From the IMG/VR virus record IMGVR_UViG_3300005528_000049: a DNA stretch of 64,000 nucleotides, one strand, 5' to 3'. The notes under the pieces are model-generated. The model saw nothing but the letters and a program-made list of their open reading frames with translations. It did not search any database and had not been told where the DNA came from. The position numbers and the translations under genes were made by a program. Below, piece by piece: positions 1-62,111 of the stretch; the first letter of the stretch is position 1, and each line of letters opens with the position of its first letter. This DNA comes from a virus (lineage: Duplodnaviria; Heunggongvirae; Uroviricota; Caudoviricetes).

Positions 1-65
1 TTTGGAGTTTAAAGAAATATACTTATCTTTAATACCCTATTTAAATAAATATATTTTAGAGTTAT

Positions 66-422
66 TTGAATTTACTTTATTTAGTTGGGAATAATATTTT
101 TGCTTATAAATTATATTCAAGAAAAAGCTTAATAAATACACAACCTCTATTTTATTTAAAGAGTGATAACCCTCTACATAAATATAGAAGAAGTATATTT
201 ATAAATGATTTATCCTTTATAAAAGATGTAAGTGTATGTGGAAGAACAATTGATGTTAACTTTAATCTATATACTTCTGTTAATTATGATGTAGTTCATT
301 CAACATATATTAAATTAATAAAGTATTTAAATGATTATATTAATAACGTTAAATTATATACTTATAAAGAGACTGAAGAGCTTGTAGCTGATTTAGAGCT
401 AATAATATTTAGTTGGGATTAA
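66..422 (+). CDS. hypothetical protein
   Basis: 118-aa ORF from the six-frame track; no recognisable motif. Confidence 0.35.
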   Translation: MNLLYLVGNNIFAYKLYSRKSLINTQPLFYLKSDNPLHKYRRSIFINDLSFIKDVSVCGRTIDVNFNLYTSVNYDVVHSTYIKLIKYLNDYINNVKLYTYKETEELVADLELIIFSWD

Positions 423-478
423 GTTTGTGTTAAGTTTGAAAACTTTAAGTATAAAAATATGACAAAAAATATGTAATT

Positions 479-823
479 ATGATTAATTATCCTAGAAATG
501 TTGTTGAGTTCAAATCTCTGAGAAAGGATTTATTAAGAGGTAATCTTAATAAACAAGATGTAAAGACTGCTGAAACTTATATAACCCACTGGCAGGTTGT
601 TGTTGGTAGTTATAATTTGCAAGTGTTGGTAAAAATTAGTGGCAAAAGTCAAAAAGATATTTCAAATGATTTAGGTATTAAACCTAGACAACTAAATGAA
701 ATGCTTAGTGGTTTGAATGGTATTACTCCTCATAAGAGGTTATTAGCAAATTACTTTAATGTAAGTGAGGAATTGTTTAATGATTATAGACAAATTGGGA
801 AAACCAGTACAAACAAACAATAG
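479..823 (+). CDS. putative HTH (XRE-like) DNA-binding protein
   Basis: segment ISGKSQKDISNDLGIKPRQLNEMLSG resembles a helix-turn-helix of the Cro/cI type. Confidence 0.4.
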   Translation: MINYPRNVVEFKSLRKDLLRGNLNKQDVKTAETYITHWQVVVGSYNLQVLVKISGKSQKDISNDLGIKPRQLNEMLSGLNGITPHKRLLANYFNVSEELFNDYRQIGKTSTNKQ

Positions 824-1032
824 AATAGCAATTGCTGAGCTAAAACTAAATGATCAATTAGTTAAATCAGCTCATTTAGTTTTTGCTACAGTTATAAAAG
901 TATTTATTGATTATTTAATCATTAGATATGATAATAATATGATAGATGATAATTTTATTTCTGAGGAGTTTATTATTATATCAACTCCAGAAGAAAAGAT
1001 TACTTATATAGGTTCTAGTTTAGAAATGCCTC

Positions 1033-1299
1033 TTGGATATTCAAATGTCAGATAAAATTCCTCTTATACATTTAGATGAAGATAAAAATAAACTCAGTAT
1101 TTATGTCTCAGAAGAAAACATAAATACTGAGTCCAATTGGAGAAATACCGTCTCTCATCATATGTTAGACTTCTTAAAATCTAATTCAACTGGAATCTGC
1201 CAAGTCAAAATTAAAATTGATGATTATAAACCTTTTTTAGTTGATTTGTTGGATTATTTTGATTTTGCCTTTCCAAAAAGAATCTATATTAGATATTAA
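1033..1299 (+). CDS. hypothetical protein
   Basis: 88-aa ORF; weak support. An upstream overlapping ORF 765..1055 is also possible. Confidence 0.3.
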   Translation: MDIQMSDKIPLIHLDEDKNKLSIYVSEENINTESNWRNTVSHHMLDFLKSNSTGICQVKIKIDDYKPFLVDLLDYFDFAFPKRIYIRY

Positions 1300-2021
1300 A
1301 TATAAGTTATTTCTATTGTAAAGTTTAGATTTAAAGAGCTTGATGTTGATAAGACTTCAAGAACTAACTGCTCTCCAACTACCGTTGAAAAGGAACTAAT
1401 GATGTTAGTTGATCTAGTAGTTGACACGTTGAATGTTGTACTATTAGCTAAAGTTGCTCCTAAAGCATCTTGTTTAACTAATCTAACAGTTGCTGAACCA
1501 CTAGTATTATTTAAATATAACTTAGTAATATTATATGCTTTAGTTATATAGTTTTCTAATACATATACTTTTACAGTTGGTATTTCAATAGATCCAATTA
1601 TAGAATCTAAAGAGCTATTAACACTAGAAGATATATTAATACTAGTGGTGTTATCAGTTACTACTATTCCAGAACTACCTGTTATTGTCTTTAAGGCGAC
1701 ATTAGGATTAGCAAAGGAATTAAGTAAAGAAACACCAGAACCTACATTAGTAATATTCAAATTATTATTAATAGTTATAGTATCTGAATTAACTGTAAAT
1801 GTAGTTGCTGTTCCAGGAAGTAGGGTTTTTAATCTTAACTCTGCTCCTGTTATGCTGCCTATAGTAGAGCCACCTCCTAAGTTAGCTACTGTAATACCAA
1901 TGGGTAGTTGATCTACTGTTGCTTTTTCTGTAACTCCTGAGACTGTATTAACTACTGCTAATAAACTGGCATTAGTTACAGAAGATGCAGGAGGTAATTG
2001 AGATATTTTCTTTGAAGCCAT
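1296..2021 (-). CDS. tail fibre-like structural protein
   Basis: N-terminus MASKKISQLPPA... resembles the conserved N-terminal anchor of phage tail-fibre proteins; Ser/Thr/Asn/Gly-rich beta-type composition. Confidence 0.5.
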   Translation of the reverse strand: MASKKISQLPPASSVTNASLLAVVNTVSGVTEKATVDQLPIGITVANLGGGSTIGSITGAELRLKTLLPGTATTFTVNSDTITINNNLNITNVGSGVSLLNSFANPNVALKTITGSSGIVVTDNTTSINISSSVNSSLDSIIGSIEIPTVKVYVLENYITKAYNITKLYLNNTSGSATVRLVKQDALGATLANSTTFNVSTTRSTNIISSFSTVVGEQLVLEVLSTSSSLNLNFTIEITYI

Positions 2022-2116
2022 ATATTTGTAATAATTTTATAAGTTGAAATAATAATAATATTATATATAGGATATTAAGTATGTAATTAAGATAAAAAAA
2101 TGTATTCAGGCTATTT

Positions 2117-2692
2117 ATGCAAGACAATAATAAGGGTATTAATAAGGTTTCAGATTCATATGTATGTGGTGTATTTACAAGTTGGTCATATGTTAAAGTA
2201 GTTGATAATAAGAAAATGATCACACTGCACTTTGCAATTAATAGGTTTGTGGGGGAAGATACAGTTCATTATGATTTACCATCTAATAACTTAGATAAAA
2301 ATCATAAGAAAAGAGTTGCTCTATACTTAGAGTTAGAACTTGAAGATATGCCCTCAGATATGGATAACTTAAGTAACTTTAAATTTGTGGATAAAAGATT
2401 TAATAATATAACTCATAAAAAAAGTGAATATGTATTAGCCATATCTTATACAACCAAACCAGTTGCAGTTACCTCTAGAACTAAAGAAGGAAAGCCTAAT
2501 ATTGAATGTTATTATTTTTCTATGGGGGCAGATAGTATTATTAGTATTAGTGAAGAAGGTAATTATCTATGGACGGAAGATAATCAAAATACTAGAAAAA
2601 TTGATATAGATAAAGCAGTTGACATTATTAGTAATAATATTGTTAAAGTGCCTGATCATATTAGTAATAGAAGCACTGCATTTTTAATATAA
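2117..2692 (+). CDS. hypothetical protein
   Basis: 191-aa ORF, no motif. Confidence 0.45.
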   Translation: MQDNNKGINKVSDSYVCGVFTSWSYVKVVDNKKMITLHFAINRFVGEDTVHYDLPSNNLDKNHKKRVALYLELELEDMPSDMDNLSNFKFVDKRFNNITHKKSEYVLAISYTTKPVAVTSRTKEGKPNIECYYFSMGADSIISISEEGNYLWTEDNQNTRKIDIDKAVDIISNNIVKVPDHISNRSTAFLI

Positions 2693-2705
2693 CATAACTG
2701 CTTTA

Positions 2706-3251
2706 ATGAATGTATTTCAGAATAATTGTTTGAGGTTAGTAGGTGGAGAATATCCAATTAAACTATATAAACCAATAAAACAAACTATAAAATCTCATTA
2801 TGATATTAATGAGCCTATAACATTATATGGAAAAAATGGAAGTAGGTTAGATTTGGAAAAGTCAGTTCAAGAATTTTATCTATTCAATTCTTTATGTCTG
2901 TCTTATAAGAATATAAATAAAACAACCCTTTATACAAAAGAAGAAGTGTCTTTACTATTTTTAGAAATAGTAGGCAGACTTACAAAATATTTAAAGTTTT
3001 ATTATACTCTTATAAACTATAACTTACCTGATAAAGTATTGATAAAAGATATTATTTTATCTGAGCTTTTAATTATGTTTGATATATCTTTAGATGATTT
3101 AATTAAGGATGATCTTATATATTATGAGACAGGTTCCTGGAAGTTAAAAGGGCAAAAATCTCTTTTAATATTTTTTAAATATATAAATTACTTAGATCTA
3201 CTTATAGTAGATGCTAAACAACAAATTCAAGATAGTTTTTCAATAATATAA
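2706..3251 (+). CDS. hypothetical protein
   Basis: 181-aa ORF, no motif. Confidence 0.45.
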   Translation: MNVFQNNCLRLVGGEYPIKLYKPIKQTIKSHYDINEPITLYGKNGSRLDLEKSVQEFYLFNSLCLSYKNINKTTLYTKEEVSLLFLEIVGRLTKYLKFYYTLINYNLPDKVLIKDIILSELLIMFDISLDDLIKDDLIYYETGSWKLKGQKSLLIFFKYINYLDLLIVDAKQQIQDSFSII

Positions 3252-44898: not shown

Positions 44899-45156
44899 TT
44901 GCTAACTCTTGATGAAGTAATTGATAGTTTCTTACATAGAGAACTTGTAGATGGTCAAACCTTAATTGACTTTCTTAAAGAGGGTACTAAGGTACCTCTT
45001 GTTGATTTTCATAAAAATATAAAGTTTCTTAATGCACTTAAAACAATGGCGGATAAAGAAGCTGCCACAAGAAGAATGAGTAAAGGTAGTGGCAAAAACT
45101 TAAGGTCTTTACAAAATGTTTTTAGTGAGTTTAGTACACCAATAAATTATGACTAA
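44899..45156 (+). CDS. hypothetical protein
   Basis: 85-aa ORF. Confidence 0.4.
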   Translation: MLTLDEVIDSFLHRELVDGQTLIDFLKEGTKVPLVDFHKNIKFLNALKTMADKEAATRRMSKGSGKNLRSLQNVFSEFSTPINYD

Positions 45157-45814
45157 GTTAAAAGCGCCAAGAATATATCATCTACCTTGGTCTGAAGTAT
45201 TAAGTAAGGATGATAAGTTTATTAGATCAACTAATATATTTAAAGATAAAGAGGTTATTGTTACTTTAAAATTTGATGGTGAGAATACTTCTTTGTACAA
45301 CGATGGAACATTTCATGCTAAGTCTTTAGATAGTAAAGCACATGAGTCTAGAGACTGGTTACATATTTGGTGGAGAGAAAAACTATATACTAGTAATTAT
45401 TTGTTGTTGCATGGTAAGTTGCCTGATTTAAGATTAGTTGGTGAAAATATGAAAGGCTTTCATACAATCCAATATAATAACTTAGAAGCTTTGTTTCTAT
45501 TACATAGCGCATGGAATGGCACCACATGTTTGTCATGGGAAGAAACACTTAATATAGCTTTTATATTAAATATAAAAACTCCACCTGTATTGTATAAAGG
45601 TGTTTATAATGAAGCAGCTATAAAGGAATTAAACAACTTAGAAAAGTATAATGATGATTTAGTTGAAGGCTATGTCATTAGAAATGCTGGTGAATTTGAC
45701 TATAAAGATTCAATAAACAATGTTGCTAAATTTGTATCTAGCAGGTTTGAAATTAAAGGCGATCACTGGTCTAAAGGTAAAATAACTTTTAATAAAACTA
45801 AATATGAAATATAG
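45149..45814 (+). CDS. ATP-dependent RNA/DNA ligase-like nucleotidyltransferase
   Basis: covalent nucleotidyltransferase motif I KFDGENTSL (KxDG); short (221 aa) as in the phage RNA_ligase-family proteins. Confidence 0.45.
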   Translation: MTKLKAPRIYHLPWSEVLSKDDKFIRSTNIFKDKEVIVTLKFDGENTSLYNDGTFHAKSLDSKAHESRDWLHIWWREKLYTSNYLLLHGKLPDLRLVGENMKGFHTIQYNNLEALFLLHSAWNGTTCLSWEETLNIAFILNIKTPPVLYKGVYNEAAIKELNNLEKYNDDLVEGYVIRNAGEFDYKDSINNVAKFVSSRFEIKGDHWSKGKITFNKTKYEI

Positions 45815-54476: not shown

Positions 54477-55208
54477 TTACTTTTTCTTTTTATAATCAAC
54501 TTCTAATTTAATACATCTTTTTTTTACAGCATTATCACTTACATCAAATATCTTTCCTATATAAACCATAGGATATTTATCTACTAATTCTTGTAGTTCT
54601 TCTTTTGTAACTTCAAATTTTAAAGGACGTGAAAAGTTTACTTTATTATTTATCTTAGAGCATTTACCACATCTTGTAGATTTTATATGTATATTACAGT
54701 TACAATCTACACATTTGTTTTGAATGATCTCTTTTCTTCTTCCTCTACCAGCATAAGTTTCTGTTTGAGTGTGACAGTTAGGACATAAGAATCTAAGATT
54801 TTCTAATCTATTATCACTATTAATTCCATTAATATGATCTAATTGAAGAACTAATTCTTGATTATTCCAATGTCCAGGGTTATTACAAATAGAACATTTA
54901 TATTTTAATAGATTTTCTTTTACTAATCTTCTTTTTAGATCTTGTCTGCTATATGTGGAATTTTCTACTAATATTTTATCTAAATCAAGAGCATTAATCC
55001 CTCCAAAAGATTTTGCTTTTCTATTTTTATTTAACTTGTCTAAAGATAAACTATCTTCTTTTATTCTATTGTTTAATTCTTTGTAATTATTTCCATGAAG
55101 AGACATATCAATTTTTAAAAGAACTTCAGCTAAAGTATTACAGCTATTTAATATATCTTGTAATTTATCTTTATCTAATTTCCAAATTGTATTATGCATA
55201 CTTTTCAT
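54477..55208 (-). CDS. HNH endonuclease
   Basis: LVLQLDHINGINSDNRLENLRFLCPNCH (canonical HNH His-Asn-His with Cys zinc ligands); extra Cys-rich zinc-ribbon segments. Confidence 0.75.
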   Translation of the reverse strand: MKSMHNTIWKLDKDKLQDILNSCNTLAEVLLKIDMSLHGNNYKELNNRIKEDSLSLDKLNKNRKAKSFGGINALDLDKILVENSTYSRQDLKRRLVKENLLKYKCSICNNPGHWNNQELVLQLDHINGINSDNRLENLRFLCPNCHTQTETYAGRGRRKEIIQNKCVDCNCNIHIKSTRCGKCSKINNKVNFSRPLKFEVTKEELQELVDKYPMVYIGKIFDVSDNAVKKRCIKLEVDYKKKK

Positions 55209-55318
55209 AATAATTGAATCTTGTAGTAATTAACAGCAATTATACTACAAGGTTTAATAACTTGTCAAATAATATTAACTTGACAAACATATTACTTTAA
55301 TGTATTATATTAAAATAT

Positions 55319-55392
55319 GGCGGGGTGTGGTAGTAGTAACCAATCACTCTCATAAGGTGAAATCAAGGCAGTGTGCAAATCCTGCCCCCGCA
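55319..55392 (+). tRNA. atypical tRNA-like element, anticodon CAT (Met/Ile-type), copy 1
   Basis: D arm tggt-agtagta-acca; anticodon arm tcact-cucauaa-ggtga (U33, CAU, A37); 6-bp acceptor gcgggg/ccccgc followed by unpaired T; T-loop-like GTGCAAATCC instead of GTTCAAATCC; structure not fully canonical. Confidence 0.35.
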
Positions 55393-55430
55393 ATTTAACT
55401 ATATTACTAATATTAATTTAGTTATTCTTA

Positions 55431-55522
55431 GTAAGATGTGGTAGTAGAATATGTAGTAATACATTAACCAGTCTCCGCTTATATTGGAGAGATCAAGGCA
55501 TGGTGCAAATCCTGTTCTTACA
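55431..55522 (+). tRNA. atypical tRNA-like element related to copy 1, with a ~17-nt insertion in the D-loop region
   Basis: shares gtggtagtag..aacca and atcaaggca..ggtgcaaatcctg..caatt with copy 1; acceptor covaries (gtaaga/tcttac) and is again followed by an unpaired T; anticodon stem-loop gtctcc-gcttatatt-ggagag is abnormal. Confidence 0.3.
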
Positions 55523-55735
55523 ATTAACTATAGTAAAATATAGTTAAACTTATACTTAATAAATTATGGCTAAATGAGATTTATACTGCTATTAGAAATA
55601 ATAATGAGGCCAAATCTCTTTTTTATTAGGTATATTTAATATTATTACTGAACCTATAATTTATAGATACTTGGGAGAAGAACCCATGTAGGAAACATTA
55701 GTTGTCTATAATGTGTAATAATATAAAACATATAA

Positions 55736-55841
55736 ATAAAGTTGACTGAGTTTGGTTGAAAGTTGATACTAACTAGATTGCTTAAGTGAGGTTAGATACT
55801 CTATACTTAAGCAACCAAGGGTTCAAATCCCTTACTTTATT
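55736..55841 (+). tRNA. 106-nt tRNA-like element (perfect acceptor stem and T arm, long unresolved interior)
   Basis: acceptor ataaagt/actttat 7/7; T arm aaggg-TTCAAAT-ccctt; the interior contains an 8-bp hairpin gcttaagt...acttaagc with a 17-nt loop; cannot be folded as a canonical tRNA by eye. Confidence 0.3.
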
Positions 55842-56160
55842 TATATAAAAATATCTTTATCAGATCCAACGCTAGTGCAAGACTAGGGGTTTAGTAAAGT
55901 GGATGGTTTACTTGTAATTTGTCAGCCATAAAGTCCGGCCCTATTGGTATAAAGATATATGAAGTACAGCAAAGGTTTAGGGTTTTAACAAAGTATATTT
56001 GTGGCCTGTTAATGTGATGGCTGGAACTTCTAAAACTAGAACCTATAAAGAATAGGAACAGCTATTAGATGGTGAACTTGGCAAGCCTTTTGTATTTAAA
56101 CAGAATAAAACTGTTTGTAATGCAGAAGAAAGATTTACATCTGTTTGGAATTATTAATAT

Positions 56161-57037: not shown

Positions 57038-57174
57038 TGTTTAGTAGCTCAGTTGGTAGAGCGTCTGACTGTGGCTTTTTAGTTTAATGTAAAACTATAG
57101 TTAACTATATTATAGGTTCAATTCCTATAAAGGTCTTAATCAGAATGTCCCTGGTTCGATTCCAGGCTAGACAG
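57038..57174 (+). tRNA. tRNA gene interrupted by a ~64-nt insertion in the anticodon loop (anticodon GTG/His if inserted after position 37; alternatives possible)
   Basis: acceptor tgtttag/ctagaca (7 bp, one G.U); canonical D arm TA-GCTC-AGTTGGTA-GAGC; anticodon stem tctga (57064-68) pairs with tcaga (57140-44), separated by 71 nt; variable loop atgtc; canonical T arm cctgg-TTCGATT-ccagg; the insertion itself contains a T-arm-like hairpin tatagg-ttcaatt-cctata. Confidence 0.6.
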
Positions 57175-57256
57175 TTGCTATTAAAACAATAGCAAACAAA
57201 CAACTAACTATAAAGGAGGTAACTGTGTTACTAGATATTATAATTGGTTAAAACAA

Positions 57257-57414
57257 ATAGTAGTGGTGGAAAGATATACACTCATATCATGCGTTAGGTT
57301 GTGGTCCTAAAGAAGCAGTAAAATGAAAGATGATTGACAAGTGTACATAGTTAATTAGATCGCATGTGGTATGGATTGGGCACAAGTATAGGGTTAAATT
57401 CCCTACCTACTATT
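57257..57414 (+). tRNA. ~160-nt tRNA-like element (perfect 7-bp acceptor, T arm, long interior)
   Basis: acceptor atagtag/ctactat 7/7; T arm taggg-TTAAATT-cccta; 5' side continues tggtgg as in the 55319/55431 family; interior not foldable by eye. Confidence 0.25.
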
Positions 57415-57626
57415 TCTCTTAAACATGTAGTAATAGATATACAAATATATATATATATGATTTTATAGAAGCTTCTATGAGTATGGCTGACTATAACATT
57501 GAGTATTATACTATTAACTCTCATAGAGTATAATGCAGATTCAATAAGAAAGTGTTAACTATACCATATTTAGTCCTCTTTCTTATATATCCCTTTGTAT
57601 ATTACTACATGTTTATTTTTCTACAA

Positions 57627-60030: not shown

Positions 60031-60114
60031 GGGTGAGTATCCAAGTGGCTAAAGGGCGCTAACTGTAAAATCAGTTGATTTTTATCTTCATAGGTTTGAC
60101 TCCTATCTTGCCCA
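60031..60114 (+). tRNA. type II (long variable arm) tRNA with atypical anticodon loop; identity uncertain (Leu-TAA or Tyr-GTA)
   Basis: acceptor gggtgag/cttgccc (two G.U); T arm atagg-TTTGACT-cctat; variable arm gat-tttt-atc; anticodon stem aactg/cagtt encloses only 6 nt (taaaat), or 8 nt with a 4-bp stem. Confidence 0.5.
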
Positions 60115-60144: not shown

Positions 60145-60206
60145 GCCCTAGTAGCATAGTGGTCAAATGCGCCTACCTTGTAAGTAGGAGATATCTGATC
60201 TAGGGC
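60145..60206 (+). ncRNA. 62-nt T-arm-less tRNA-like element, anticodon GTA (Tyr-type), followed by a U-run
   Basis: acceptor gccctag/ctagggc 7/7; perfect D arm gcat-agtggtcaa-atgc; perfect anticodon arm cctac-cuuGUAa-gtagg (U33, A37); only 11 nt (agatatctgat) where variable loop plus T arm should be; followed by tttttt, so the acceptor helix plus U-run could also act as a terminator. Confidence 0.35.
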
Positions 60207-60239
60207 TTTTTTATTTAAATAAATAAGAATAAATTTAAT

Positions 60240-61572: not shown

Positions 61573-62111
61573 TTTTTTAAGTTGTAGAGATATGGCTGAG
61601 TGGCTGAGGTTCTTAATGTATAATTAAGGTTATATATAATAAAAATCTTAACTCAATGTCTAATAGAAAAACCTAATACTGTTTGCAGTATGTGTAATAC
61701 TGCAATTTACAGAAGACCATCATCCTTAATTAATTCAGAAGGTAAAGCTTATTGTAGCAGAGAATGTTATGGTAAATCTTGTCAAAAAGATAGTATTTTG
61801 TATTGTATGTAATAAAGAAATGCTTTCTAGTAAACATTCAAAAACTTGTTCTAAAGAATGTTTTAATATATCTCTTGCAGATCCCAATAGAAAGTTTTGC
61901 AAAGGAAGAAAGCCATATGCTTCAAATAAATATGGAAGTCGTTCTTTTAAGTATGCTTTTGTCATATTATTTGAACCATTGCTTTATATTATATTATAAA
62001 TAGGTTCAATTATAAAACTTTAAACCTCTAAGTTTTATAGTTTTTGGTTATCACTAGTTCAAATCTAGTTAGAGGTACTCATTACATATATAACTTTATA
62101 CAATAATTAAG

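Follow-up and report, generated by a model that had tools for sequence, protein, structure and literature searches.

Two adjacent genes in an AT-rich phage genome probably encode functional tRNAs of unusual structure, as judged from their sequences and from those of their homologues in related phages. Both genes belong to the tRNAs in the broad sense and represent a distinct structural variant among them, which has a G55/A18 elbow, a bulged T-stem and, in the second gene (copy 2), a fifth arm in the D-loop that is capped by a GNRA tetraloop. We infer tRNA function from the retained universal positions, the identity determinants, synteny and codon demand. The window that we analyzed comprises 64,000 nt of IMGVR_UViG_3300005528_000049, and all coordinates are given on window numbering.

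The G+C content of the window was ~28% throughout and its genes included those for DNA polymerase, helicases, ribonucleotide reductase and several HNH endonucleases. Proteins identical to those of the window were found on metagenomic contigs of up to 228 kb from freshwater samples, and the best cultured matches to the DNA polymerase (Microcystis and Microcoleus cyanophages) were only ~28% identical. By these two measures the source is an uncultured large freshwater phage, AT-rich and with a genome of ~230 kb; a cyanobacterial host is possible. A tRNA gene cluster is located at 54.3-62.1 kb, with two minus-strand HNH genes interspersed and an RNA ligase gene close by. We found no ORF of at least 40 aa overlapping copy 1 or copy 2, and the short ATG frames downstream were not conserved in relatives; a coding explanation for the locus was thus rejected.

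An earlier note on this DNA had described two related tRNA-like genes, both with a CAT anticodon. Two related copies are present on the + strand and share the blocks TGTGGTAGTAG, TAACCA and ATCAAGGCA(G/T)(T/G)GTGCAAATCCTG; their acceptor and anticodon stems differ. The G/T versus T/G difference corresponds to a bulged U that is shifted one step in a 5-bp T-stem (GCA-U-GG versus GCAG-U-G). A blastn comparison of copy 1 with copy 2 gave E ~2e-5, and on this similarity beyond chance the two are paralogous tRNA-type genes. The CAT anticodon was confirmed for copy 1 (55351-53) but not for copy 2 of the window, which has TAT at 55480-55482; CAT is the anticodon of its orthologues in the related loci L004, L010, L012 and L044. 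Further, the acceptor had been described as 6 bp followed by an unpaired T facing C or T. We read it instead as an acceptor of seven positions that starts one base upstream (G55319 and A55430) and has a 1x72 mismatch, because of the Rfam alignment of copy 1 and the U1-A72 pair in L010 and L044. The T then corresponds to U8, and the C/T that was thought to face it is position 65, which pairs with G49. The two genes were annotated as follows.

55319..55393, + strand: copy 1, a non-canonical tRNA(CAU), putatively of initiator type (Rfam, family model, fold and orthologue)
55319-55325/55386-55392, + strand: copy 1 acceptor, 7 positions with a G1xA72 mismatch
55326, + strand: copy 1 U8
55328-31/55339-42, + strand: copy 1 D-stem, with D-loop AGUAGUA
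55344-48/55356-60, + strand: copy 1 anticodon stem, with anticodon CAU at 55351-53 in the 7-nt loop CUCAUAA
55361-67, + strand: copy 1 variable loop, 7 nt
55368-73/55381-85, + strand: copy 1 T-stem, with a bulged U at 55372 and T-loop UGCAAAU at 55374-80
55393, + strand: copy 1 discriminator A
55430..55523, + strand: copy 2, a non-canonical tRNA whose anticodon is UAU in the window but CAU in relatives (covariation and family model)
55430-36/55516-22, + strand: copy 2 acceptor, with an A1xA72 mismatch
55437, + strand: copy 2 U8
55439-42/55467-70, + strand: copy 2 D-stem
55448..55464, + strand: 17-nt D-loop insertion of copy 2, after the A-G that stands for G18-G19; lacking in copy 1
55472-76/55486-90, + strand: copy 2 anticodon stem
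55477-85, + strand: copy 2 anticodon loop, 9 nt (GCUUAUAUU), with UAU at 55480-82
55491-97, + strand: copy 2 variable loop
55498-55503/55511-15, + strand: copy 2 T-stem, with a bulged U at 55501 and the T-loop at 55504-10
55523, + strand: copy 2 discriminator A

The minimum-energy fold of each copy was the cloverleaf (z = -2.1 for copy 1). The D-loop of copy 2 contained exactly 17 extra nt and its anticodon loop 9 nt, as had been reported. This loop is reduced to 7 nt if G55477.U55485 closes as a sixth G.U pair; the closing bases in L044 are A/A.

Both copies shared an elbow module that consists of the D-loop A14-G15-U16-A-G..A21 instead of ..G18G19.., the T-loop U54-G55-C56-A57-A58-A59-U60, the bulged T-stem U and the 7-nt variable loop. 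The universal positions U8, A14, R15 (G15), A21, R26, U33, A37, G53, U54, C56, R57 (A57), A58 and C61 were kept, and the D-stem carried U10-A25 with G11-C24. In every family member position 18 was changed to A and position 55 to G; a G was present at the G19 position. Features of the canonical elbow are a G19-C56 pair, the intercalation of residue 18 between residues 57 and 58, and a single hydrogen bond from G18 to Psi55 (PMC4810234). The L-shape could be kept in the phage pair if the D-loop A intercalated in the place of G18 and the next G paired with C56, with an A18/G55 contact replacing G18-Psi55. The GNRA-capped hairpin of copy 2 would point outward from the outer corner of this elbow, because the insertion sits in the naturally length-variable region around position 20.

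Phage tRNAs are commonly taken for ordinary cloverleaves and tallied with standard finders; the pair was invisible to ARAGORN at default settings, copy 2 also to Rfam. Copy 1 matched the Rfam tRNA model (RF00005) only when 55300-55540 (241 nt) was searched alone, scoring 30.1 bits where the gathering score is 29; the alignment covered 55319-55393 as a complete tRNA in canonical numbering. Neither copy was called by Rfam in the 8-kb (E<=10) and 64-kb searches, and copy 2 had no match at E<=10 either at the 8-kb scale or on 55300-55540 alone. ARAGORN, which the earlier note had proposed as a check, called neither gene by default; relaxed thresholds called both (copy 1 only at <=85% and copy 2 at <=90%). 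These calls are weak evidence because they appeared among many obvious false positives. If the pair is functional, the number of tRNAs in uncultured large phages would be underestimated.

Exact-pattern scans yielded zero matches to the family in viral contigs and only chance matches, in unrelated GC-rich coding DNA, in metagenome and genome contigs. We therefore reached homologues by walking out from the neighbouring proteins. BLAST of both copies against 50,697 GenBank phages revealed no homologue, BLAST of the whole region matched HNH genes only, and a related-locus search using the SPFH protein gave no match. Loci L042, L043, L047 and L049 were left out because they came from unrelated phages, ended too early or had no cluster. 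Orthologues of copy 2 occurred in five distinct forms (the window, L004 with the identical L045/L046/L006/L007, L012, L010 and L044) and those of copy 1 in two (the window and L004/L045), the latter differing by 1 nt, a loop base. Across lineages, copy 2 was 83-98% identical, in contrast to flanking proteins that were only 65-79% identical. In L010, L044, L012 and the outgroup L050, the slot of copy 1 was held by a canonical tRNA-Met(CAT) that ARAGORN called. The tRNA-Met of L012 had exactly the acceptor of copy 1 (GGCGGGG/CCCCGC), and that of L050 was initiator-like. Copy 2 was absent from L050 and from a second outgroup, L047, which had no tRNA cluster at the corresponding position. Among the loci and databases searched, the family appears to be restricted to one clade of uncultured phages.

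In the copy-2 set (five sequences), six pairs showed double compensatory changes and 96.9% of cells were paired, a result that 0/500 shuffles reached. The D-loop hairpin, the anticodon stem and the T-stem each contributed two of these pairs, and slid registers of the structure gave at most one doubly changed pair each. There were no disruptive changes in the helices of copy 2 except at position 1:72 (A/A in three lineages and U-A in two, L010 and L044) and in one cell that resulted from the migrating bulge. The D-stem was invariant and thus uninformative for covariation. When copies 1 and 2 were combined (seven distinct sequences), 10 pairs covaried, including four acceptor pairs, with 95% of cells paired and again 0/500 shuffles, which supports the four cloverleaf helices (7/4/5/5 bp). 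This alignment was model-based, as MAFFT misaligned copy 1 with copy 2, and it leans toward the model; its acceptor and hairpin columns, however, can be checked by eye without ambiguity. The acceptor arms of the two copies thus differ yet stay complementary, which had been the basis of the earlier argument for selection on RNA structure, and homologues in related phages lend it further support, since all five copy-2 forms keep their helices by compensatory change. As judged from these patterns of substitution, selection on RNA structure is shown for the helices of both genes.

A covariance model that we built from the five copy-2 orthologues detected copy 1 end to end (55 bits, E ~1e-9) and otherwise nothing else in the 64-kb window. 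The copy-2 members themselves scored 105-120 bits on this model and the canonical tRNA-Met of L012 matched it weakly (27 bits). Because related phages keep the unusual shapes, the two genes are neither chance matches nor plain junk.

The D-loop insertion of copy 2 holds a 5-bp hairpin (55451-55/55460-64) with a GUAA cap. In L010, two of the stem pairs were changed on both sides (U-A to G-C and G-C to A-U). The loop had the sequence GUAA in three lineages and GUGA in L010, each a GNRA tetraloop; in L044 it was GUAAAA. The resemblance of the insertion (..GUAGUAA..) to the adjacent D-loop (GUAGUAG) suggests that it may have arisen by local duplication of GUAGUA. Copy 2 without the 17 nt has exactly the D-loop of copy 1, as would be expected if the hairpin were excised as an intervening sequence to leave a mature, copy-1-like tRNA of 77 nt; the tRNA-Asn of the cluster also carries a structured insert that looks excisable. 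However, searches with Rfam found no bulge-helix-bulge, ribozyme or group I/II features at the insertion, which is a plain 5-bp hairpin, and we know of no machinery in bacteria for the removal of a D-loop hairpin. Further, the GNRA-capped form is that of a permanent structural element and may stem from the GUAGUA duplication, and copy 2 was still not called by default ARAGORN after removal of the hairpin in silico. We consider excision to be very improbable and regard the hairpin as a lasting fifth arm. We found no case of a D-loop helix in phage tRNAs in the literature. Altered elbows, as in tRNA-Pyl and mitochondrial tRNAs, are covered by a review of non-canonical tRNAs in nature, but a D-loop helix is not (PMC7609411). 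To the extent of our searches, no D-loop helix supported by covariation has been described in a bacterial-type tRNA.

The pair is accompanied by the following expression signals and neighbouring features.

54477..55208, - strand: HNH homing-endonuclease gene (phrog_10822, E = 3.5e-45), divergent from the tRNA pair
55268-55239, - strand: promoter of the HNH gene, 12/12 consensus matches
55280..55308, + strand: sigma-70-type promoter TTGACA-17-TATTAT, 11/12 consensus matches
55396..55424, + strand: AU-rich spacer hairpin between the copies, z = -2.05
55524..55547, + strand: 9-bp hairpin immediately 3' of the copy 2 discriminator, z = -2.9
55551..55634, + strand: structured region of ~85 nt, almost invariant, with a U-run near its 3' end

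The -10 element of the + strand promoter stops 10 nt short of position 1 in copy 1, and the promoter sequence is conserved ahead of the corresponding slot in L004, L010 and L044. An equivalent of the spacer hairpin, with another sequence, was present in L010 and L044. The stem of the 9-bp hairpin was invariant in five lineages, with one varying loop base. The region 55551..55634 contained three covarying pairs, including a G-C to A-U change in the GAGAUUU/AAAUCUC stem, and is a probable terminator or 3' element of a two-gene unit. The locus is probably organized as a small tRNA operon of promoter, copy 1, hairpin, copy 2, hairpin and terminator-like structure. Neither copy encodes CCA; RNase P and a 3' nuclease would trim the precursors, CCA would be added, and the tRNAs would supplement the host pool.

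The determinants for recognition by formyltransferase and for initiation are an unpaired 1x72, A73, G2-C71, C3-G70, G4-C69 and R11:Y24 (PMC9976931). In its Rfam alignment, copy 1 carries all of them (G1xA72, A73, G2-C71, C3-G70, G4-C69 and G11:C24), which it shares with bacterial initiator tRNA-fMet together with CAU in a CUCAUAA loop; G11:C24 is also found in copy 2 and thus does not discriminate between the copies. Copy 1 is also syntenic with the phage-borne initiator-like tRNA-Met of sister phages. In contrast to tRNA-fMet, copy 1 has G at position 1 rather than the usual C, a UCACU/GGUGA anticodon stem, no GG in the D-loop, G55, the bulged T-stem U and a 7-nt variable loop. The anticodon stem of bacterial initiators has three consecutive G-C pairs (29-41, 30-40 and 31-39), which are lacking in copy 1 (U-A, C-G, A-U, C-G and U.G). 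From the determinants and the position of the gene, we infer that copy 1 would be an initiator-type tRNA-Met. Because its slot is held by canonical initiator-like genes in the relatives and in the outgroup, copy 1 is most simply explained as a chimera that would combine the acceptor of the resident initiator gene with three modules of copy 2 (D, variable and T). The T-arm of copy 1 is identical to that of copy 2 in L010, and recombination between the two copies does occur, as indicated by a fusion in L005 and L009 (described below).

The complete cluster, that of L010, contained three CAU genes, namely the initiator-like gene, copy 2 and a canonical gene adjoining tRNA-Ile(GAU). Given these three genes, copy 2 is probably an elongator-type CAU tRNA, specific either for Met or, with lysidine, for Ile (Ile2). 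Copy 2 resembles AUA-decoding tRNA-Ile (the lysidine CAU 'Ile2' or the UAU form) in its CAU/UAU anticodon, U33 and A37 and in occurring in an AUA-rich phage, but differs from it in its 9-nt loop or sixth G.U pair, its D-loop hairpin and its non-canonical elbow; further, relatives possess a second candidate, the canonical tRNA(CAT) adjoining tRNA-Ile(GAT). The UAU of copy 2 in the window would allow direct reading of AUA. This codon represents 42% of the Ile codons of the phage and, at 34 per 1000 codons, is used twice as often as AUG. Among the canonical tRNAs across the cluster, six of seven read A-ending codons (UGG, UUG, UGU, UCC and UGA), a pattern into which a role of copy 2 as a minor AUA decoder would fit; the split tRNA-Asn-like gene (GUU) reads AAU/AAC. 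UAU in copy 2, the demand for AUA and the loss of the downstream tRNA(CAT) would fit an AUA decoder and would equally fit drift. Decoding by copy 2 could be impaired by G55, by the D-loop hairpin and by the anticodon arm, with its loop of 9 nt or stem of 6 bp. Anticodon stems of 6 bp are found in tRNA-Pyl and mt-tRNA-Ser(UCN) (PMC7609411). Among the possibilities raised in the earlier note, a phage-specific non-canonical initiator/elongator Met or Ile tRNA family fits best with the compensatory changes, the universal nucleotides, the determinants of copy 1, synteny, the promoter, the terminator-like structure and AUA use.

Decaying duplicates had been suggested as well. For the family as a whole this is wrong because the odd features are conserved and covary. 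For the lineage of the window, a once-functional family that now drifts like the neighbouring tRNA genes is an unlikely explanation that some observations favour. L005 and L009, which were sampled independently of each other and elsewhere match the window almost exactly, possess a single hybrid in which the 5' part of copy 1 runs into the 3' part of copy 2 at a junction inside ATCAAGGCA. The ends of this hybrid cannot pair, which indicates that the two genes are dispensable. Further, in the window, a deletion has removed 11 nt from the T-arm of tRNA-Thr, and tRNA-Tyr carries a loop of 8 nt. The genes for Ser(GGA) and Ile(GAU) are no longer present, and the downstream tRNA(CAT) is reduced to its 3' half (62020-62078). 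Given these eroding neighbours, the two window-specific substitutions in copy 2, C34U and C65U, could be drift. However, C65U preserves a G.U pair, C34U creates a meaningful AUA anticodon, and every helix of both window copies is still fully paired. The promoter and the terminator-like structure are intact, and the window sequence is present in at least two independent samples. Copy 1 is only one loop base away from its orthologue in L004/L045, in which the flanking proteins are 66-79% identical. We favour functional tRNAs over remnants for the window phage too.

The pair may also represent tRNA-derived regulatory RNAs, a further suggestion of the earlier note. Processed tRNA mimics without a translational role could occupy, as decoys or sponges, a nuclease that targets tRNAs or a modification enzyme, encoded by the host or the phage, or their elbow and hairpin could serve as a handle for a phage protein. 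Structural selection would look identical in this case, and the 9-nt anticodon loop, G55 and D-loop hairpin of copy 2 are odd for a decoding tRNA; the review cited above contains nothing like this hairpin (PMC7609411). In addition, the cluster holds other conserved tRNA-framed RNAs that are unable to decode as they stand (a 160-nt element and the tRNA-Asn insert), and the RNA ligase gene is nearby. On the other hand, all four other lineages retain U33, the CAU anticodon and A37 of copy 2. Likewise, copy 1 has what a working tRNA needs, with initiator acceptor determinants and a location in a slot that ordinary tRNA-Met genes fill elsewhere. We regard mimicry as quite unlikely and continue to favour tRNAs that act in translation.

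A bolder reading is that the A18/G55 elbow, the bulged T-stem and the exposed GNRA hairpin define a phage-private class of tRNA that escapes, or is selectively recognized by, a factor that reads the elbow; we put this forward as a long shot. For example, a tRNA-cleaving nuclease of defence or takeover might destroy the host initiator and AUA-reading tRNAs, and the phage would translate on with nuclease-proof replacements. The module would then have spread from copy 2 to the initiator gene by recombination because it was advantageous. Accordingly, the locus offers a testable case for remodelling of the tRNA elbow by a phage for evasion of tRNA-targeting enzymes.

Functional tRNAs that lack G18G19 and the T-Psi-C consensus are known, namely tRNA-Pyl and type II mitochondrial tRNAs (PMC7609411). 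These have shortened D-loops and short variable loops, in contrast to the helix-expanded D-loop of copy 2, and the phage pair differs from them in keeping C56, U54 and A58 and in its bacteriophage context. Copy 2 is similar to class II tRNAs (Leu, Ser and Tyr) in having five arms, with an extra stem-loop that projects from the core. However, in class II the variable arm, which separates the anticodon arm from the T arm, provides the extra helix, whereas that of copy 2 lies inside the D-loop at approximately position 20. If the pair is functional, bacterial-type translation would tolerate G55, a bulged T-stem and a whole extra D-loop helix.

In the tRNA cluster of phage T4, free-standing homing-endonuclease genes of the SegB type drive recombination of the region (PMC2330249). 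The cluster described here is similarly composed of tRNA genes interspersed with free-standing homing-endonuclease genes. The T4 tRNAs are structurally canonical, in contrast to the divergent, chimeric tRNAs that are flanked by HNH genes here. Oddities of phage tRNAs are expected as such; the chimeric copy 1 and the fused hybrid suggest in addition that adjacent tRNA paralogues exchange modules beside homing-endonuclease genes.

The T4 tRNA cluster also encodes stable tRNA-ended RNAs, the role of which is unknown. In the present cluster, the 160-nt element at 57257 had been proposed as a third member of the family. It is ruled out by the family covariance model, which gave no match to it in the window at E<=10, and its resemblance to the pair is loose and limited to the 5' end. 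It is a separate conserved tRNA-framed RNA, with a branched domain of ~80 nt where the anticodon loop would be. Finally, the neighbourhood contains a tRNA-Asn(GUU)-like gene in which a tRNA-shaped insert interrupts the anticodon loop; 16 pairs covaried across four sequences.

The tRNA cluster of the window contained a tRNA-like gene interrupted by a second tRNA-shaped sequence.

Window 57038-57175, tRNA-Asn(GUU)-like gene with an insert (Rfam and covariation)
Window 57073-57137, the insert
Window 45149-45814, phage RNA ligase gene
Window 57257-57416, conserved 160-nt RNA

The insert, a 64-nt tRNA-shaped sequence plus one U, lies in the anticodon loop of the tRNA-Asn(GUU)-like gene between CUGU and UAA. 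It scored 43 bits against the Rfam tRNA model; its acceptor is 7 bp long, D and T arms are both present, and a mini-hairpin is all that is left of the anticodon arm. When the tRNA-like part and its discriminator U were taken out, CUGUUAA was restored exactly. Comparison of the window with three loci of related phages (L004, L044 and L010) revealed covariation in all eight helices, outer and inner (16 pairs; 0 of 500 shuffles). The gene was uninterrupted in the related locus L012 and in the more distant relative L050. The insert might be cut out by RNase P and RNase Z, after which the tRNA-Asn halves could be joined by the phage RNA ligase. A literature search for a tRNA gene split by a tRNA-like insert yielded no match, and the split gene looks more novel than the copy 1/copy 2 pair.

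The acceptor, D arm and T arm of the 160-nt RNA are all tRNA-like and contain covarying pairs, and the place of the anticodon loop is taken by a branched domain of approximately 80 nt on a 7-bp stem. This RNA was found in L004, L010, L012, L044 and L050. The earlier note had proposed it as a third member of the copy 1/copy 2 family; however, it did not match the covariance model of that family, and this relationship was not upheld. The RNA is reminiscent of the stable tRNA-ended RNAs in the tRNA cluster of phage T4.

Copies 1 and 2 themselves were fused in two relatives, which came from two independent samples.

L005 11909-11983, deletion hybrid of copy 1 and copy 2
L009 3612-3686, deletion hybrid of copy 1 and copy 2

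The ends of the hybrid are non-complementary. The hybrid is direct evidence of recombination between copy 1 and copy 2 and of the dispensability of both genes.

Further features lie 3' of copy 2 and elsewhere in the cluster.

Window 55524-55547, hairpin 3' of copy 2
Window 55551-55634, intergenic structured stretch 3' of copy 2
Window 55740-55842, tRNA-like gene (Rfam partial match, 20.7 bits)
Window 60031-60114, tRNA-Tyr(GUA)
Window 60145-60207, tRNA-Thr(UGU) (Rfam, 46 bits)
Window 61573-62110, remnants of a tRNA-Ser(GGA)/tRNA-Ile(GAU)/tRNA(CAU) region

Across five lineages, the intergenic stretch was more conserved than the tRNAs themselves. Its fold places a GAGAUUU/AAAUCUC helix inside a long stem. 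The stretch contains three covarying pairs, and a U-run is located close to its 3' end; a terminator is one possible role, a small RNA or an attenuator another. The tRNA-like gene at 55740 combines a canonical T-arm with a long internal hairpin. Relaxed ARAGORN settings read a 4-base 'taag' anticodon, and the gene may therefore encode a tRNA of the Leu(UAA) type whose loop has 8 nt. The gene was conserved in L005, L007, L009, L044 and L045, and a bigger form was present in L050.

The T-arm of tRNA-Thr(UGU) is 11 nt shorter than in L004, L001 and L010, and because of this loss the gene is likely a pseudogene despite its Rfam score. One additional A gives tRNA-Tyr(GUA) an 8-nt anticodon loop in both the window and L004. 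Where relatives carry tRNA-Ser(GGA) and tRNA-Ile(GAU) as well as a canonical tRNA(CAU), the window retained only 17 nt of the Ser gene and, from the CAU gene, a 3' portion of 59 nt (62020-62078), with a Cys-rich ORF between these two remnants.

A permuted (two-piece) tmRNA (Rfam RF04321, 57 bits) was detected in three related loci, and no tmRNA was called within the window itself.

L004 5302-5633, permuted tmRNA
L005 6120-6451, permuted tmRNA
L045 2892-3223, permuted tmRNA

The encoded tag is GNVKNNIVSFS(K/R)TPVLA, which resembles cyanobacterial tags.

The phage group is rich in mobile elements. At the start of the L004 and L005 loci, the ribonucleotide reductase gene harbors an intein with a LAGLIDADG domain. 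Two IS605 OrfB/TnpB-type genes are located at 1-3065 of the distant relative L047.
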